The translations under genes were made by a program, and so were the position numbers. The notes beneath the pieces were generated by a model that worked only from the letters and a program-made list of their open reading frames with translations, was not told the DNA's origin and did not search any database. DNA of 64,000 nucleotides from Escherichia coli (GTDB lineage: Bacteria; Pseudomonadota; Gammaproteobacteria; Enterobacterales; Enterobacteriaceae), in assembly GCF_016026235.1 (NCBI RefSeq), contig NZ_CP065613.1; one strand, 5' to 3'. Each line of letters starts with the position of its first letter. Position 1 is the stretch's first letter. Shown piece by piece: positions 1,859 to 19,943 of this stretch.

Positions 1859-4076
1859 AACGTCCAACCGCCGCTTTAGGGCGTTTCTTCGCACCAGCAT
1901 TCACCGGACGAGATTGCGTAGACGACGCTTTTTTTGCCGTAGCAGGCGTCTGACGCTGGGTCGCCATCGGCGTATGTTTCGTCAACGCCGGACGGGTATT
2001 GCGGTTCTGGCGACGAGCCTCACGCATCTCTTCAATGGTTGGCGCAGGCACTAAGCAATCGCGACGGCTGCCAATCAGATGCTTTTTGCCCATCGCTTCC
2101 AGCGCCTGGCGGATTAACGGCCAGTTTGCCGGATCGTGGTAACGCAACAACGCTTTATGCAAACGACGCTGTTTGTCGCCCTTCGGTACGAAGACGTCTT
2201 CACTCTTATAACCAATCTTCGCCAGCGGGTTTTTCCCGGTGTAATACATGGTGGTCGAGTTAGCCAGTGGCGATGGGTAGAAGTTCTGTACCTGGTCGAG
2301 ACGGAAACGATGCTTTTTCAGCCACAGCGCCAGATTCACCATATCTTCATCACGCGTACCGGGGTGCGCAGAGATGAAATACGGGATCAGATACTGCTCT
2401 TTACCTGCCTGTTTCGAGTAAGTATCGAACAGCTCTTTAAAGCGGTCATAGCTGCCCATGCCCGGCTTCATCATCTTCGATAACGGCCCTTCTTCGGTAT
2501 GTTCCGGGGCAATCTTCAGATAACCGCCGACGTGATGGGTCGCCAGTTCTTTGATATAGCGCGGATCTTCCACGGCGATGTCATAACGCACACCAGAGGC
2601 AATCAGGATCTTTTTAATGCCTTTCAGATCACGCGCACGGCGATAGAGGTTGATCGTTGGTTCGTGGTTCGTGTCCATGTGCGGACAAATATCCGGATAA
2701 ACGCACGACAAACGACGGCAGGTTTGTTCAGCGCGTGGCGATTTGCAGCGCAACATATACATGTTGGCAGTTGGCCCACCGAGATCGGAAATTACGCCCG
2801 TAAAACCTGGAACGGTGTCGCGGATCGCTTCGATCTCATTAATGATCGAATCTTCGGAACGGCTCTGAATAATGCGCCCTTCGTGCTCGGTGATAGAACA
2901 GAAAGAGCAGCCGCCAAAGCAGCCGCGCATAATGTTGACCGAAAAACGGATCATTTCGTAAGCCGGAATACGGGCATTGCCATAGGCCGGATGTGGCACG
3001 CGCTTGTATGGCAGCGCAAAAACGCTGTCCATCTCTTCGGTAGAAAGCGGAATAGCAGGCGGGTTGATCCACACATAGCGGTCGCCGTGTTTTTGCATCA
3101 ATGCGCGGGCACAGCCTGGGTTAGTTTCGTGGTGCAGAATACGCGAAGCATGGGCGTACAGCACTTTATCGCCCTTCACTTTCTCGAAAGAAGGCAGCAA
3201 CACGTAGGTTTTTTCCCACGGTTTCGGGCGCGGTGGCTGCACGGTTACGGCTTTGGCTTCCTGCTTTTTCGGTGCCACCGGTTTGTTATCCGCGCACGGC
3301 AAATCTTCACCATACGGATGCGGGATTGGGTCGATTTTTCCAGGGGTATCAAGACGGGTGGAATCCACGCCGCTCCAGCCTGGCAACGCCTCTTTTACGA
3401 TAATCGCAGTATTACGCACATCGCGGATTTCGCTAATTGGCTCGCCCATCGCCAGACGATGCGCCACCTCCACCAGCGGACGCTCACCGTTACCGAACAT
3501 CAGCATGTCGGCTTTCGAATCCACCAGCACGGAACGGCGCACGGTATCGGACCAGTAATCATAATGCGCGGTACGGCGCAGACTAGCCTCAATACCACCG
3601 AGGATCACCGGTACATCTTTCCACGCCTCTTTACAACGCTGGGTATAAACCAGTGTGGCGCGATCCGGGCGCTTACCCGCGACGTTATCCGGCGTGTAGG
3701 CATCGTCATGACGTAAACGGCGATCGGCGGTATAACGGTTGATCATCGAATCCATGTTGCCAGCAGTAACACCGAAAAACAGATTCGGTTTACCCAGACG
3801 CATGAAATCGTCTTTGCTGCTCCAGTCTGGCTGAGCGATGATCCCAACGCGAAAGCCCTGCGCTTCCAGCATACGACCGCAAATCGCCATCCCGAAGCTT
3901 GGGTGATCGACATACGCGTCGCCAGTAACCAAAATGATGTCGCAGCTATCCCAGCCAAGTTGATCCATCTCTTCACGAGACATCGGCAAAAACGGTGCCG
4001 GTCCAAAACAGGCGGCCCAGTACTGCGGCCATGAGAACAGGTCGCGATCCGGTTGGATCAGGGAGATAGAGCTCAT
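1857..4076 (-). CDS. ygiQ: radical SAM family protein YgiQ (UPF0313)
   Basis: 739-aa ORF with CFGGCSFCS radical-SAM cysteine motif. Confidence 0.9.
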
Positions 4077-4186
4077 TTTGCTTCCAGAAATGATAAAAAA
4101 ATAATCAAAGGCCGGGGATTATAAGCCGGAACGAAAGAGAAATCGAAAAGTATTCCATACTCGCCCTCCTCGGGCGAGTATGAAGA

Positions 4187-5599
4187 TTACGGTACCGGAT
4201 TGACTAACAGTTGCCCAATCGAGCCACGGTCCGCCATTTCCAGCGTCTGACTGTTGAAGTAGAACGGGAAGTGCGCCCAGGAAGGCTGACCGAAATAAAC
4301 AAGCAGCTCCACTTGTCCGTCAACCCAAACGGTATCTTTCCAGCCTCTGTCTTCCGGGAACGGCATCGCACCATTCACGTTACGGATCTGGAACATCACG
4401 CCTTCAATATGGAACGCTTGCGGCTCGTCCGCGCGTACCGTCCAGCGTTCCCACGTTCCTTGCTGCGCGGTGACATCAATACGGTTGACGTCCCACAGTT
4501 GTCCATTAATACCCGGGTCATCACCCAGACTGATATCGCGACTGCGAATCGGCGAACCGGCCATGATTTCAGTTGGCAGCAAGCGCATCGGAAGACTGTC
4601 TGTGACCAGCGGCAGAAGGCCGGTTGGGCGCAGCGTTAGCACCAGGGTAGAAACCAGAATGCTGGATGGCTCAAAGAAGCCACGAATACGATCAACAATG
4701 CTCGCCGCTTCGCCACAGGTGATCGACACTTCATCACCGTTGCTCATATCCACCAGAATCTCGCGGCGCTCGCCCGGTGCCAGCGAAAGTTGCTTCACCG
4801 ATACAGGAGCAGGCAGGAATCCCTGATCGCCAGAAATCACATGTAACGGGCGACCATCGCTCATCTGTAGTTGATAGCGACGAGAGTTCGACGCGTTCAG
4901 CAGTCGCAAGCGCACCCAGCCACGCGAGACTTCAACGTACGGGCTTTGTACACCGTTAACCAGCAGCGTATCACCAACAAAGCCGCCGCTTCCCGGTTCG
5001 TTGTATTCTGGCGTACCAAAGTTATCCAGCCGTTTATCCTGGATAATGACCGGAAAATCATCCACACCATAATGGTTGGGGATAGGCAGCGACTTGCTGA
5101 CTTCATCTTCCACCAGCCACATTCCGGCAAGGCCGTTATAGACCTGCTGAGCCGTGCGGTTGGGAGTATTGGCGTGATACCACAGAGTAGCTGCGTTCTG
5201 GCGAATGGGCAGTACGGGTGCCCAGTCAGCGTTTGGCGACATCATCCGTGCCGGACCGCCCATCAGCGGGCCTGGTACCTGTAGCCCGGCCACCGTCATT
5301 GAGACATTTTCTGTCAGGCGGTTGCTGTAAATAAGCTTAACATCGTCGCCCTTCCAGACGCGGATAGTCGGCCCCAGGTAACGACCATTGATTCCCCAGA
5401 CCGACGCGCGTGTCCCTGGCGTAAATGACCAGTGCGCACGTTGTACAGTCATAAACAGCGGTTGCCCACGGCGAGATTCAAGTAGCGGCGGAACGGGTAG
5501 CGGTTGCTGTTGCCCGGCTGCGCTGGCCTTCAGGGGAACAGCGCCTGCACAAAGTGCAATCCCCGATGCCTGAATGAACTGACGCCGACTGAGTGACAT
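4187..5599 (-). CDS. ftsP: cell division protein FtsP (SufI), multicopper-oxidase-like, Tat-exported
   Basis: 470-aa ORF; twin-arginine signal MSLSRRQFIQASGIALCAGAVPLKASA. Confidence 0.92.
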   Translation of the reverse strand: MSLSRRQFIQASGIALCAGAVPLKASAAGQQQPLPVPPLLESRRGQPLFMTVQRAHWSFTPGTRASVWGINGRYLGPTIRVWKGDDVKLIYSNRLTENVSMTVAGLQVPGPLMGGPARMMSPNADWAPVLPIRQNAATLWYHANTPNRTAQQVYNGLAGMWLVEDEVSKSLPIPNHYGVDDFPVIIQDKRLDNFGTPEYNEPGSGGFVGDTLLVNGVQSPYVEVSRGWVRLRLLNASNSRRYQLQMSDGRPLHVISGDQGFLPAPVSVKQLSLAPGERREILVDMSNGDEVSITCGEAASIVDRIRGFFEPSSILVSTLVLTLRPTGLLPLVTDSLPMRLLPTEIMAGSPIRSRDISLGDDPGINGQLWDVNRIDVTAQQGTWERWTVRADEPQAFHIEGVMFQIRNVNGAMPFPEDRGWKDTVWVDGQVELLVYFGQPSWAHFPFYFNSQTLEMADRGSIGQLLVNPVP

Positions 5600-10526: not shown

Positions 10527-11186
10527 ATGCGAATTTTACTGATAGAAGATGACATGCTGATTGGCGACGGCATCAAAACGGGCCTTAGTAAAATGGGTTT
10601 TAGCGTCGACTGGTTTACACAAGGTCGTCAGGGAAAAGAGGCGCTTTATAGCGCGCCTTATGATGCGGTGATTCTGGATTTAACCTTACCAGGCATGGAT
10701 GGTCGCGATATTTTGCGCGAATGGCGAGAAAAAGGTCAGCGTGAGCCGGTACTGATCCTGACCGCGCGCGATGCGCTGGAGGAACGTGTAGAAGGGCTGC
10801 GTCTGGGAGCTGACGATTATCTGTGTAAACCTTTTGCGTTGATAGAAGTCGCCGCCAGGCTGGAAGCTCTGATGCGCCGAACCAACGGCCAGGCCAGCAA
10901 CGAGCTGCGCCACGGTAACGTCATGCTCGACCCCGGCAAACGTATCGCCACGCTGGCTGGCGAACCCTTAACACTGAAACCAAAAGAATTTGCCCTGCTG
11001 GAATTACTGATGCGTAACGCTGGTCGGGTACTGCCGCGCAAACTGATTGAAGAGAAACTGTATACCTGGGACGAAGAGGTCACCAGTAATGCCGTTGAAG
11101 TGCATGTGCATCATCTGCGACGCAAACTCGGTAGTGATTTTATTCGTACCGTGCATGGTATTGGCTACACATTAGGTGAGAAATGA
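10527..11186 (+). CDS. qseB: quorum-sensing two-component response regulator QseB (OmpR family)
   Basis: 219-aa ORF, receiver domain plus winged helix; 4-bp overlap with qseC. Confidence 0.93.
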
Positions 11187-12532
11187 AATTTACCCAACGT
11201 CTTAGTCTGCGCGTCAGGCTGACGCTAATCTTTTTAATTCTGGCCTCGGTGACCTGGCTGCTTTCCAGCTTTGTCGCCTGGAAACAAACAACGGATAACG
11301 TCGATGAATTGTTCGACACCCAACTGATGCTGTTTGCCAAGCGGTTAAGTACGCTCGATCTCAACGAAATCAACGCGGCGGATCGCATGGCACAGACGCC
11401 AAATAAATTAAAACACGGTCATGTTGATGACGATGCGCTGACCTTTGCCATCTTTACCCACGACGGCAGAATGGTCCTTAACGATGGCGATAACGGAGAA
11501 GATATTCCTTATAGCTATCAACGGGAAGGTTTTGCTGACGGGCAACTGGTGGGCGATAAAGATCAATGGCGTTTTGTCTGGATGACCTCACCTGATGGCA
11601 AATATCGCATCGTTGTTGGTCAGGAATGGGAATACCGTGAAGACATGGCGCTGGCGATTGTTGCCGGGCAATTGATCCCGTGGCTGGTCGCACTGCCGAT
11701 TATGTTAATCATCATGATGGTACTATTGGGTCGTGAACTCGCTCCGCTGAACAAACTGGCGCTGGCGCTGCGTATGCGTGACCCTGACTCGGAAAAACCA
11801 CTAAACGCGACTGGCGTACCCAGCGAAGTGCGTCCGTTGGTTGAGTCGCTAAATCAACTGTTCGCCCGCACACATGCGATGATGGTTCGTGAACGACGCT
11901 TTACCTCCGACGCAGCTCACGAACTACGTAGCCCGTTAACGGCGCTGAAAGTGCAAACCGAAGTTGCGCAGCTTTCTGACGATGATCCGCAAGCGCGGAA
12001 AAAAGCGCTGCTTCAATTACATTACGGGATCGATCGCGCTACTCGTCTGGTTGATCAACTGCTCACTCTATCGCGGCTGGACTCACTGGATAACCTTCAG
12101 GACGTCGCGGAGATCCCGCTTGAAGATCTCCTGCAATCGTCGGTGATGGATATTTACCACACGGCGCAGCAGGCGAAAATTGACGTGCGACTGACACTCA
12201 ATGCCCACGGCATCAAACGCACCGGACAACCGCTATTGCTAAGTTTGTTGGTGCGAAATTTGCTGGATAACGCCGTGCGCTACAGTCCACAGGGCAGCGT
12301 GGTAGACGTCACGCTGAATGCTGATAACTTCATCGTGAGGGATAACGGCCCCGGTGTGACACCAGAGGCACTGGCGCGAATTGGCGAACGCTTCTATCGC
12401 CCACCCGGACAAACCGCTACCGGCAGCGGGCTTGGGCTATCGATTGTCCAGCGAATCGCCAAATTGCATGGCATGAATGTTGAATTTGGGAATGCGGAAC
12501 AAGGTGGATTTGAGGCGAAGGTAAGCTGGTAA
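11183..12532 (+). CDS. qseC: sensor histidine kinase QseC
   Basis: 449-aa ORF, H-box AAHELRSPL, two TM segments. Confidence 0.93.
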
Positions 12533-12544
12533 CTTCTCTGTCTA

Positions 12545-12577
12545 TGAGAGCCGTTAAAACGACTCTCATAGATTTTA
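12545..12577. terminator. bidirectional hairpin between convergent qseC and ygiZ
   Basis: tctatgagag...ctctcataga perfect 10-bp stem, followed by ttttact. Confidence 0.6.
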
Positions 12578-12910
12578 CTAATAGCAAAATATAAACCGTC
12601 CCCAAAAAAGCCACCAACCACAAACCAGACAAATACCGAGCGAGAATACATATACCCAAAACTCGAACATTTCCCGCATAAAGAGTTTTCTTAAGATAAG
12701 AATAATAAGTGGCGTAAGAAGAAAAAATGCTGCAATCATTGCTTGCAATATACGATCTTCGCCTGAAACGGAAGGTATACTGCAAATATTGCCTCCCGAG
12801 TCAAGCATCCAGTCATACTTATTGAAAGCAAAAAAAGCATCTATTAACCAATAAGTAAGCATTATGTATAATAATGCTTCAAATATTGATAGTAGTTGTT
12901 TTTTTAACAT
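12578..12910 (-). CDS. ygiZ: inner membrane protein YgiZ (about three hydrophobic helices); candidate immunity protein for the upstream effector
   Basis: 110-aa hydrophobic ORF; ATG lies 6 nt after the stop of the upstream gene; A+T-rich like the two genes upstream. Confidence 0.8.
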   Translation of the reverse strand: MLKKQLLSIFEALLYIMLTYWLIDAFFAFNKYDWMLDSGGNICSIPSVSGEDRILQAMIAAFFLLTPLIILILRKLFMREMFEFWVYVFSLGICLVCGWWLFWGRFIFCY

Positions 12911-12916
12911 GTCTGA

Positions 12917-13627
12917 TTACTCATTAATCAATTTTTTGATATGTTCTCTAATCTCTAACAACCTCATACCATAAGAGATGAATTTATAATCATCTGTATC
13001 ACGCGCAGGCAAATTATTAATTAAATAAATAAAAAACCCCAAATCTCGTTCAACACCACGATTATATCTAATACCAGCCATAATATACTGCTCATTCGTC
13101 ATATACAGTGTTGCCGAAGAGGGATAATCAAAAAGGGCAAGATCTCTTAAATGAGTAGCAGCAATTTGAAACGTAAAATCATCTTCCATTAGGCATGTCG
13201 CTAACTCTAACTGATTTCTGGTAGTTAATTCTGAAGGGTCAAGACCTAGAGTAATCGCTGCGGTTCGTATTTGTATACCCATTGAGCCAAATGATGTTTT
13301 ATTTTCAGGCATATCTAACAATCCAATCATTCTTTTTGTTTCATATATCTGAAACTTATAATTTTCAGGCATACCTCCTGACTCAATCCAGGCCACACCG
13401 CCCAGTAACTCTGGACGAATCCCAGCGGCATATGCATGTTTAATTATTTTGTCCCTATTATATTGTACATATGCATCTTTATAAGCATTTAAATAATATA
13501 CTCCCGAACGGCGACGCGAATCATTTTTTCCTAACTTCCAGAGTAAAACGTCCATTTCATCCCATTTACGGAACTTAGTTTGTGGAATTGTACAATAGCT
13601 ATTTTTTATAGTGAGATCGCTTTTCAT
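12917..13627 (-). CDS. putative Hcp-associated effector with lytic-transglycosylase/lysozyme-like (GH23-like) motifs
   Basis: ORF track gives 12917..13654 with a TTG first codon overlapping hcp; ATG at 13627 (MKSDLTIKN...) sits 2 nt after the hcp stop. Motifs AWIESGG, GSMGIQI and AGIRYNRG resemble the ES / G-x-Q / YN-G signature of SLT-type muramidases (e.g. MltE QQESGGNPNA...GLMQL). A+T-rich; no signal peptide. Confidence 0.55.
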   Translation of the reverse strand: MKSDLTIKNSYCTIPQTKFRKWDEMDVLLWKLGKNDSRRRSGVYYLNAYKDAYVQYNRDKIIKHAYAAGIRPELLGGVAWIESGGMPENYKFQIYETKRMIGLLDMPENKTSFGSMGIQIRTAAITLGLDPSELTTRNQLELATCLMEDDFTFQIAATHLRDLALFDYPSSATLYMTNEQYIMAGIRYNRGVERDLGFFIYLINNLPARDTDDYKFISYGMRLLEIREHIKKLINE

Positions 13628-13629
13628 AT

Positions 13630-14109
13630 TTAAAAAACCCTTTCTTCCCAACAACTATATGATTCCGTACTCGCGATATGGTGCTTCCATGTTATATTTT
13701 TATAATTAAGAACAATAACCTCTTCCGGTTGATTACCCGCATGTGTAATTGAGTGTGGATAACAAGTCAGAATATTCGATAAATGTGCCCCTTGCAATTC
13801 AATTGTGTAAAACCTTTCAATACAACCGCCAGAATTAATTCTATAAAAATTAAATATAGCTGATAACTCTTCATTTTCAGAAAGAGCAGCATTTAATAAA
13901 GGGGAGGATTTATCTATTGGCTTGTAAAATTTTATGGGGTGATGCACTACATTATATTCTCGACTTAAAGAATGGTCGAACTGCAAAACAAAAATTTCAT
14001 CCACATGATTTATTTGATATTTATTACCAATAGATGCATACGAACCACAGCCCTCAGAGATCAAACCTTGTGTTTTCCCTTTAATTGATAAGTATATGAT
14101 ATTTGACAT
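13630..14109 (-). CDS. hcp: type VI secretion system tube protein Hcp (TssD family), orphan copy
   Basis: 159-aa ORF; IYLSIKGKTQGLISEG, IDKSSPLL and YKNITWKH match conserved Hcp blocks; GGAG Shine-Dalgarno 9 nt upstream; A+T-rich. Confidence 0.8.
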   Translation of the reverse strand: MSNIIYLSIKGKTQGLISEGCGSYASIGNKYQINHVDEIFVLQFDHSLSREYNVVHHPIKFYKPIDKSSPLLNAALSENEELSAIFNFYRINSGGCIERFYTIELQGAHLSNILTCYPHSITHAGNQPEEVIVLNYKNITWKHHIASTESYSCWEERVF

Positions 14110-14358
14110 ATATATTCTCCATGATTATTTTTTCCGAAAAGCTCCTGTATCATTTGCATAATACATCTCTCCTGTGGGAACTTATGGGAAGTTGATTTCA
14201 GTATTGTCATTTTCAGAAAATATTTATCCTGCATCGGTGAGTCAGAGCAAGATCAGACTTTTGCTAAATTCGCAAAAGACTTTGCACATTTTGCTAATTT
14301 CACCGTACCGCTCTGTGACGTACTATAGTCGGCAAACGTCTCACCTTGAGGTTAAAAA

Positions 14359-14940
14359 ATGAGCAACATCCTGATTATCAACGGCGCGAAAAAATTCGCC
14401 CACTCCAATGGTCAACTGAACGACACCCTGACCGAAGTCGCGGATGGCACACTGCGCGACCTCGGGCATGATGTCCGCATCGTTCGCGCCGACAGCGACT
14501 ACGATGTCAAAGCGGAAGTACAAAACTTTCTCTGGGCTGATGTGGTGATCTGGCAGATGCCAGGCTGGTGGATGGGCGCGCCGTGGACAGTGAAAAAATA
14601 TATTGATGATGTATTCACCGAAGGTCATGGAACGCTGTATGCCAGCGATGGCCGTACCCGCAAAGATCCGTCAAAAAAATACGGTTCCGGCGGCCTGGTA
14701 CAGGGCAAAAAATATATGCTTTCTCTGACCTGGAACGCACCAATGGAAGCCTTCACCGAAAAAGATCAATTCTTCCACGGCGTTGGCGTCGACGGTGTGT
14801 ATCTGCCGTTCCATAAAGCAAACCAATTCCTTGGCATGGAACCGCTGCCGACATTTATCGCTAATGACGTGATAAAAATGCCTGATGTTCCCCGCTATAC
14901 TGAAGAATATCGCAAGCATCTTGTGGAAATTTTTGGTTAA
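14359..14940 (+). CDS. mdaB: NADPH:quinone oxidoreductase MdaB
   Basis: 193-aa ORF MSNILIINGAKKFAHSNGQLN...; synteny. Confidence 0.93.
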   Translation: MSNILIINGAKKFAHSNGQLNDTLTEVADGTLRDLGHDVRIVRADSDYDVKAEVQNFLWADVVIWQMPGWWMGAPWTVKKYIDDVFTEGHGTLYASDGRTRKDPSKKYGSGGLVQGKKYMLSLTWNAPMEAFTEKDQFFHGVGVDGVYLPFHKANQFLGMEPLPTFIANDVIKMPDVPRYTEEYRKHLVEIFG

Positions 14941-14970: not shown

Positions 14971-15285
14971 ATGCTTACCGTAATCGCAGAAATCCGTACT
15001 CGTCCTGGTCAACATCACCGTCAGGCGGTATTGGATCAGTTTGCTAAAATCGTTCCAACCGTACTGAAAGAAGAAGGTTGCCACGGCTATGCGCCAATGG
15101 TGGATTGCGCTGCTGGCGTGAGTTTCCAGTCTATGGCACCGGATTCTATCGTGATGATTGAGCAGTGGGAAAGCATCGCGCATCTTGAAGCGCATCTGCA
15201 AACCCCGCACATGAAGGCGTATAGCGAAGCCGTAAAAGGTGACGTGCTGGAGATGAATATTCGTATTCTGCAGCCAGGGATTTAA
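14971..15285 (+). CDS. ygiN: quinol monooxygenase YgiN
   Basis: 104-aa ORF, ABM-domain size; synteny. Confidence 0.9.
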   Translation: MLTVIAEIRTRPGQHHRQAVLDQFAKIVPTVLKEEGCHGYAPMVDCAAGVSFQSMAPDSIVMIEQWESIAHLEAHLQTPHMKAYSEAVKGDVLEMNIRILQPGI

Positions 15286-18686: not shown

Positions 18687-19109
18687 CTAGTAAACCGGAA
18701 TCGCCATCGCTCCATGTGCTAAACAGTATCGCAACCAGTCCGCTAAAAACTGGTTAATTTGATGCTTTTCGTCGCGTTGATGCAACTTTTTATTAGGATA
18801 ATCATACCGCGCTTTGAAGCGAAAAATCTGCTGGCTTGAACACACTTCAGCCACCATCGCGTCATGATACAGACGCACCGTCATTGACGGAAGGCTCCAG
18901 TAACTGATCGCGGGCGCAGTCTGTTCTATTGTCACCAGGGTAGTGTATCGGGTCGATTCCACAATCGTCAGCCGATATTGTGCGTTTGCCACCTGATAGC
19001 TTACAGTTTCGCCGGGTGCGTCATTGCGCGGTAACAAACGGCGCAATTGTGAAAAGTTCATCTCGCACAGGCGCATCATTTCAGGAAAGTCAGGTGTGTA
19101 ACGCTTCAT
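18687..19109 (-). CDS. yqiB: DUF1249 protein YqiB
   Basis: 140-aa ORF; synteny. Confidence 0.85.
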
Positions 19110-19841: not shown

Positions 19842-19861
19842 TGGCACGTAACGCCAACCTT
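19842..19861 (+). promoter_or_regulatory. mar/sox/rob box in the tolC promoter, with TAGAAT -10 about 20 bp downstream
   Basis: tggcacgtaacgccaacctt fits the GCAC...CAAA marbox pattern; tagaat at 19881-19886. Confidence 0.55.
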
Positions 19862-19943
19862 TTGCGGTAGCGGCTTCTGCTAGAATCCGCAATAATTTTA
19901 CAGTTTGATCGCGCTAAATACTGCTTCACCACAAGGAATGCAA

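Follow-up and report, generated by a model that had tools for sequence, protein, structure and literature searches.

The mdaB locus and its insertion island

The DNA analyzed here, referred to below as the window, is a stretch of 64,000 nucleotides from Escherichia coli (contig NZ_CP065613.1), in which the segment 12400-15000 is 100% identical to the corresponding region of the O121 strain RM8352. Its plus strand carries qseB (10527-11186) and qseC (11183-12532), which are followed on the minus strand by ygiZ (12578-12910), encoding a DUF2645 protein, by a gene for a hypothetical protein of 236 amino acids (12917-13627), and by hcp (13630-14109, start codon at 14109), the product of which belongs to the Hcp or TssD family (TIGR03344, 198 bits; Pfam T6SS_HCP). 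On the plus strand there follow mdaB (14359-14940, start codon at 14359), encoding NADPH:quinone oxidoreductase (Pfam Flavodoxin_2, 129 bits; RefSeq annotation), and, downstream of it, ygiN (14971-15285), encoding a quinol monooxygenase with an ABM domain; parE lies beyond ygiN on the minus strand. According to the open reading frames and to the RefSeq annotation of the O121 locus, which is identical, the start codons of hcp and mdaB are separated by a divergent spacer of 249 bp (14110-14358), in agreement with the coordinates given in a preliminary description of this DNA. A scan of the segment 12400-15400 against Rfam produced no match at E <= 1.

The three minus-strand genes, together with the 145 bp upstream of hcp, make up an AT-rich island (about 12536-14254) that has a GC content of 27-40%, compared with ~52% in the flanks. 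Its left end carries, between the convergent stop codons of qseC and ygiZ, a hairpin, GAGAGCCGTTAAAACGACTCTC (12541-12566), that is probably a bidirectional terminator. The island is absent from O157, from E. albertii and from other genera. The stop codon of qseC directly precedes the mdaB promoter block in E. albertii, in another Escherichia species and in roughly 75 species of other genera and, because this arrangement is found across genera, the island-free state is taken to be ancestral and the segment 12536-14254 to be an insertion.

Among 5426 complete E. coli genomes, the arrangement seen in the window, in which mdaB is preceded by ygiZ, the 236-aa gene and hcp, is found in 1261, and a K-12-like arrangement, with ygiZ only and a spacer of 318 bp, in about 3026; the other ~1140, a number obtained by subtraction, would have an O157-like or other state that lacks ygiZ, in which the qseC stop codon is followed by 5 bp and then by AGACTTTTGC. 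The 104-bp segment 14255-14358, which is identical in the window, K-12, O157 and the B2 strain NC101, is present in 5424 of the 5426 genomes, with at least 99% identity in 5098 of them. Homology to K-12 extends farther to the left and covers 14178-14358; from 14198 onward the two sequences are identical except for one SNP at 14248. On the basis of this comparison, the right end of the island (14178-14254) is common to hcp-type and K-12-type genomes, and the part of the spacer that is adjacent to hcp (14110-14177) is present only in genomes with the hcp cassette. The 160 bp that are specific to K-12, between ygiZ and the shared segment, contain no remnant of hcp or of the 236-aa gene that could be detected with blastn.

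The preliminary description singled out two motifs in the spacer, an inverted repeat and a sequence resembling a mar/sox/rob box, and suggested that the acquired hcp cassette had been inserted next to, or had captured, a stress-responsive promoter. Both motifs belong to the core DNA on the right-hand side of the island junction. The first part of the suggestion stands, with the island ending at ~14254, 29 bp from the marbox described below; the idea of capture finds no support, as the segment 14255-14358 is identical in the cassette-free K-12 and O157 and is conserved in the island-free genera. An mdaB upstream sequence that is the same in genomes without the cassette is also the first of the two observations that the preliminary description itself had named as speaking against its proposal.

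Repeats and the predicted marbox in the spacer

The inverted repeat that had been described, cttttgctaaattcgcaaaag, is present at 14258-14278 and consists of perfect 7-bp arms (CTTTTGC/GCAAAAG) with a 7-nt spacer between them. It can be extended to AGACTTTTGCTAA-A-TTCGCAAAAGACT (14255-14281), in which 14255-14267 and 14269-14281 match at 11 of 13 positions, and its conserved core is a dyad, TTGC-N7-GCAA (14261-14275), with the center at about -65. The marbox-like sequence ttgcacattttgctaatttc is located at 14282-14301, and there is in addition a direct repeat, TTTTGCTAAATTC at 14259-14271 and TTTTGCTAATTTC at 14289-14301, with a spacing of 30 bp. When the 249-bp spacer was shuffled 500 times with its dinucleotides preserved, an equally good inverted repeat was obtained in 2.2% of cases (p ~0.02) and an equally good direct repeat in 1.0%, so that both repeats are modestly beyond chance. 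The "GCAC-type repeats" previously ascribed to this region are a misnomer: the spacer contains a single GCAC (14284-14287), and the unit that is truly repeated, at 14259 and 14289, is TTTTGCTAA(A/T)TTC, which is the marbox's A/T-rich half.

The proximal marbox is a 20-mer, TTTGCACATTTTGCTAATTT (14281-14300), that is located on the plus strand in the forward orientation for mdaB, with the center at about -42 or -43, and matches the consensus AYnGCACnnWnnRYYAAAYn at 12 of the 14 specified positions. Since the degenerate marbox consensus of 19 nt, when 2 mismatches are allowed, is uninformative by itself (18 matches in the window versus 16 expected), it was replaced by a matrix derived from validated sites. 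This 15-nt weight matrix was built from 12 MarA sites that PMC12052159 lists or validates (mar, fumC, tolC, map, ybjC, inaA, xseA, lpxC, rfaY, lpxL, pbpG and mlaF), a set to which mdaB does not belong. The 15-mer core of the proximal marbox, GCACATTTTGCTAAT (14284-14298, plus strand), ranks first among the 127,972 positions of the window, with 15.8 bits. The tolC marbox, GCACGTAACGCCAAC (19844-19858), is contained in the same window and was used as an internal positive control, both of the weight matrix and of the spacing; validated as it is, it scores below the mdaB core, at rank 2, or at rank 6 when it is omitted from the training set. The resemblance to a mar/sox/rob box that had been pointed out earlier is therefore well founded, the sequence being a very good box that has the top matrix score and is correctly placed and oriented for mdaB. 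Both GCACATTTTGCTAAT and a weaker upstream sequence, GCTAAATTCGCAAAA, have already been given as predicted mdaB marboxes in Table S2 of PMC12052159, a paper from 2025.

Elsewhere in the window, the second or third best match to the marbox matrix, GCTCCATGTGCTAAA (18709-18723, plus strand; 13.4-13.9 bits), falls inside yqiB, in the 3' portion of the gene, and is probably a chance match.

To place the marbox within the mdaB promoter, the mdaB upstream regions of about 80 Enterobacteriaceae species were aligned. The segment 14272-14294 (GCAAAAGACTTTGCACATTTTGC) is 93-100% conserved, the ATTT at 14297-14300 is 98-99% conserved, and in almost all of the species the marbox has the same position, exactly -75 relative to the ATG. 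Farther downstream, the key positions of a TAnnAT motif (T1, A2, A5 and T6 of 14321-14326) are 94-100% conserved, as is the G before them, at 14320, conserved among the species; on the basis of this conservation, TACTAT at 14321-14326 is taken as the -10 hexamer of mdaB. It begins 22 nt after the marbox core, which is the same gap as that between the tolC marbox and its TAGAAT (19881-19886). The -35 position (14298-14303) is occupied by TTTCAC, with only 2 of 6 matches, and is overlapped for 3 bp by the marbox 20-mer. The dinucleotide CA at 14333-14334, located 7-8 nt after the -10 hexamer and 99-100% conserved, is the predicted main transcription start of mdaB, and GAGG at 14348-14351 (89-99% conserved) is its Shine-Dalgarno sequence. 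Between these conserved elements the sequence varies freely among the species.

Class II sites are defined by a forward orientation, a center at about -41 and a poor or absent -35 element (PMC10268841, PMC12052159). At mdaB, the GCAC is on the promoter-distal side of the marbox on the mdaB strand, which corresponds to the forward orientation and, measured from the predicted start, the site has the sequence, the orientation, the position and the weak -35 element of this class. Like the class II promoters tolC p3/p4, waaY (rfaY) P1, lpxC P2, fumC and micF, that of mdaB contains a forward, asymmetric marbox of ~20 bp that lies over a weak -35 element, with the center at about -41 to -43, and belongs to a stress- and activator-responsive gene. 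In waaY P1, a validated class II promoter, the GCA triplet occupies -46 to -48, compared with about -48 to -50 at mdaB. The mdaB promoter differs from the others in two respects: the invariant block upstream of its marbox (GCAAAAGAC plus TTGC) is unusually long, and there may be a second site 21 bp upstream. The core of the marRAB marbox, CCACGTTTTGCTAAA (the reverse complement of TTTAGCAAAACGTGG), is identical to GCACATTTTGCTAAT at 12 of 15 positions but is a class I site, in the reverse orientation at about -62, whereas the mdaB marbox is forward and at about -42, so that the two belong to different activation classes.

The coordinates in Table S2 of PMC12052159 are those of motif centers, as calibrated via tolC, and the K-12 transcription starts were converted to window positions. 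The starts with which the mdaB sites are paired in that table correspond to 14259 and 14307, not to 14333. The table retains the nearest start only, the tolC marbox, for example, being assigned a start at a distance of 21 bp and not the class II start that the same table gives 40 bp downstream, and it is therefore silent either way on the predicted start at ~14333. Within the marbox, the sequence TGcTAATTT can be read as an extended -10 element, with the K-12 start equivalent to 14307 located 7 nt downstream (14293-14307). If this start is real, the marbox overlaps that basal promoter, and the activator would occlude it while activating the downstream one. The other start, equivalent to 14259, is preceded at a distance of 6-7 nt by a -10-like hexamer, (C/T/A)AAGAT (14248-14253; TAAGAT in K-12). 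Position 14248 is triallelic, with C in the window, T in K-12 and A in NC101. An upstream start directed toward mdaB may arise inside the island-derived DNA, with a strength that depends on the lineage.

Several published observations, from K-12 and from Salmonella, support a dependence of mdaB expression on this family of activators. In PMC2989944, which cites Martin & Rosner 2002, mdaB is called a member of the mar regulon. Vanillin raises MdaB 8.4-fold, an effect attributed to MarR/MarA (PMC6561319), and overexpression of marA raises mdaB by log2 1.8 (PMC9948449). In a Salmonella ramA mutant, mdaB is down 3.2-fold and ygiN 2.3-fold, which places them among the most RamA-dependent genes (PMC3139621). 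The literature searched contained no report of MarA, SoxS or Rob binding (by EMSA, footprinting or ChIP) or of mutagenesis at the mdaB site, and no ChIP paper that names mdaB; the gene is absent from the EcoCyc list of high-quality MarA targets used in PMC12052159, and it is not named in the main text and one supplementary file of a Salmonella ChIP-seq paper. An earlier ChIP-seq study in E. coli failed to recover many proven targets.

We consider it likely, with a probability of roughly 0.8, that the repeats are ancestral elements of the mdaB-ygiN promoter, with a class II MarA/SoxS/Rob site, and that the island-borne hcp cassette was inserted beside this promoter and left it intact. In such a promoter, one monomer of the MarA/SoxS/Rob family (RamA in other genera) would bind directly to the forward marbox at 14281-14300 and recruit RNA polymerase by the class II mechanism, which is proposed because the marbox overlaps a non-consensus -35 element and is located 22 nt upstream of TACTAT. 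Transcription of mdaB-ygiN would then rise under redox-cycling, salicylate or xenobiotic stress. The AT-rich hcp–236-aa–ygiZ island, presumably acquired horizontally, would have been inserted between the qseC stop codon and the promoter block, which it did not alter.

The upstream dyad and alternative readings of the spacer

Within the inverted repeat, the only parts that are invariant across species are TTGC (14261-14264, with A-T-T-a/t before it) and GCAAAAGAC (14272-14280). In the alignment of about 80 species, the half-sites of the dyad are 98-100% conserved and the 7-nt spacer between them 40-55%; since the spacer is variable and the half-sites are invariant, the long palindrome appears to be an Escherichia/Salmonella elaboration of TTGC-N7-GCAA. 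The inverted repeat is overlapped by the weaker marbox-like 15-mer GCTAAATTCGCAAAA (14263-14277, plus strand, forward), which ranks 11-15 in the window. Distal marbox-like matches occur in two registers, one located 21 bp and the other 30 bp upstream of the proximal site. Across species, the 21-bp register usually provides the best distal match, with a variable score that averages 5.6 bits; scores of about 16 bits are attained in the 30-bp register in a few species, and the distal element as a whole scores up to 13-16 bits in some. Most simply, the dyad would be an auxiliary element, either a weaker marbox-like site or a contact for the polymerase. The block formed by GCAAAAGAC and TTGC exceeds the needs of a single marbox, a point that tells against the proposed explanation.

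One alternative, which we regard as unlikely although worth weighing, is that the dyad, together with an imperfect TTGC-N7-GCTA 21 bp downstream that is the marbox core, provides the recognition and activation sites for an oligomeric regulator, of the LysR type or otherwise, which would control mdaB alongside MarA/SoxS/Rob or in competition with them. Invariant half-sites that flank a variable 7-nt spacer are the pattern expected of a dimer operator; the T-N11-A geometry, the position at -65 and the center-to-center spacing of 21 bp fit LysR-type promoters; and in many species the distal element is poor as a marbox. In others, however, it scores well as one, in either of the two registers given above. 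LysR-type promoters combine a T-N11-A dyad near -65 with a divergent or adjacent gene for the regulator itself, whereas mdaB has the dyad pattern without such a neighbor: the genes around it are qseC, ygiN and parE, and no gene for a LysR-type regulator lies beside mdaB in E. coli. The literature searched likewise mentions no LysR-type or similar regulator of mdaB. In a narrower and still more doubtful version, the block TTGC-N7-GCAAAAGAC, which abuts the island junction, would be the operator of another regulator, for instance a LysR-type quinone or redox sensor, that shares the TTGC-N7-GC core of the marbox. If this were true, mdaB would have a two-input promoter, and in cassette-bearing strains the block, only ~145 bp away from hcp, might also affect the divergent operon hcp–effector–ygiZ.

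A different possibility concerns the other side of the spacer, where the marbox could act in both directions and serve as a class I site for hcp, which would couple the cassette to MarA/SoxS/Rob stress and restore the notion of a captured promoter. Known marboxes are often located between divergent genes (marC/marR, tolC/nudF, ybjC/grxA), and relative to hcp the marbox of mdaB is reversed, which is the orientation of class I sites. Such sites, however, are centered about 62 or 72 bp from the start, and the spacer contains no minus-strand promoter at either distance from the marbox, that is, no convincing -35/-10 pair for a start at ~14229 or ~14219. The best candidate for an hcp -10 element, TATTAT (14163-14158, minus strand), which was picked by eye and is absent from K-12, implies a start ~140 bp from the marbox; GGAG at 14120-14117 on the same strand is the candidate Shine-Dalgarno sequence. 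The AT-rich DNA of the locus is, moreover, treated as repressed by H-NS at ygiZ in K-12, where ygiZ is activated by BglJ-RcsB, which is known to relieve H-NS repression elsewhere (PMC3950696); by analogy with ygiZ, the AT-rich cassette is probably silenced by H-NS in the same manner. With these data, a role of the marbox for hcp is improbable. Nothing in the sequence indicates that hcp makes use of it, and hcp is most likely expressed from a promoter of its own that is borne by the island.

Two direct repeats, TGGGAACTT and TGGGAAGTT, spaced 10 bp apart (14175-14193), precede the candidate -10 element of hcp by about 11 nt and resemble a tandem site of the response-regulator type; one of the copies differs in NC101. 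A minus-strand promoter called by a prediction tool, ATGATA-18-AATAAT (14153-14124), was rejected as implausible because transcription would begin within the hcp Shine-Dalgarno sequence. An alignment of the regions upstream of hcp in Pectobacterium, Serratia and Chania with that of E. coli revealed no conservation.

Finally, we reject the reading of the inverted repeat as a qseBC transcription terminator or conserved RNA hairpin, ancestrally located 5-10 bp downstream of the end of qseBC: the qseC stop codon does directly precede the repeat in O157 and most genera, and the E. coli RNA can form a 7-bp hairpin (z = -3.4 in the context of the window), but the stem is A/U-rich with no U-tract after it, a terminator scan does not call the repeat, folding is no better than that of shuffled sequences and is not conserved (z = -1.3 in O157, -0.95 in Citrobacter, +0.98 in Klebsiella and +0.60 in Enterobacter), and the arms are conserved as sequence, not by covariation.

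The hcp–X–DUF2645 module

The genes of the island form a module, composed of hcp (159 aa), a gene for a protein of 236-240 aa and a DUF2645 gene (110-112 aa), that is present in the window at 12578-14109 and, at 3507-5058, in L086, L087 and L089. Homologues of the 236-aa protein are flanked by a gene for a 159-aa Hcp and by a DUF2645 gene in Pectobacterium, Serratia and Chania, in unrelated genomic contexts, and the DUF2645 gene follows the homologue in these genera as it does in E. coli. Because the three genes hcp–X–DUF2645 travel together as a portable module, the ygiZ gene of K-12 looks like the third member of an hcp-linked effector cassette, left behind as an orphan, and it may be a putative immunity gene. 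DUF2645 is not mentioned in the literature searched.

The 236-aa protein has no match in Pfam, NCBIfam or the sequences of the PDB, and each of its 34 homologue clusters is annotated as hypothetical. Its AF2 model (pLDDT 76) is weakly similar to the lytic transglycosylase MltE and to the T6SS muramidase Tse3 (probability 0.95-0.98, TM 0.4-0.5, E ~0.2), and a W-I-E at positions 80-82 is invariant among 24 homologues. The protein may represent a new family of peptidoglycan-cleaving T6SS effectors. The module resembles orphan T6SS hcp–effector–immunity cassettes in that it combines a TssD/Hcp gene with a small gene of an unclassified family and a gene for a small membrane protein, and in being AT-rich, patchy in distribution and modular in other genera. 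It differs from them in that the effector and immunity roles are putative and the match to the MltE/Tse3 fold is weak.

Conclusion

The interpretation of the proximal site as a marbox is well supported and is already known biology and, as the hcp cassette merely lies beside an mdaB promoter that is near-universal, the finding is an ordinary one. What is gained is a precise placement of the mdaB marbox with strong comparative support, of little significance beyond annotation. Since the cassette has neither rewired nor borrowed the stress promoter, mdaB should be regulated in the same way in E. coli with and without the cassette. Two by-products of the analysis are possibly more useful: the conserved dyad at about -65 of a gene that is widely used as a stress reporter, and the view of ygiZ as what may be left of an hcp cassette.
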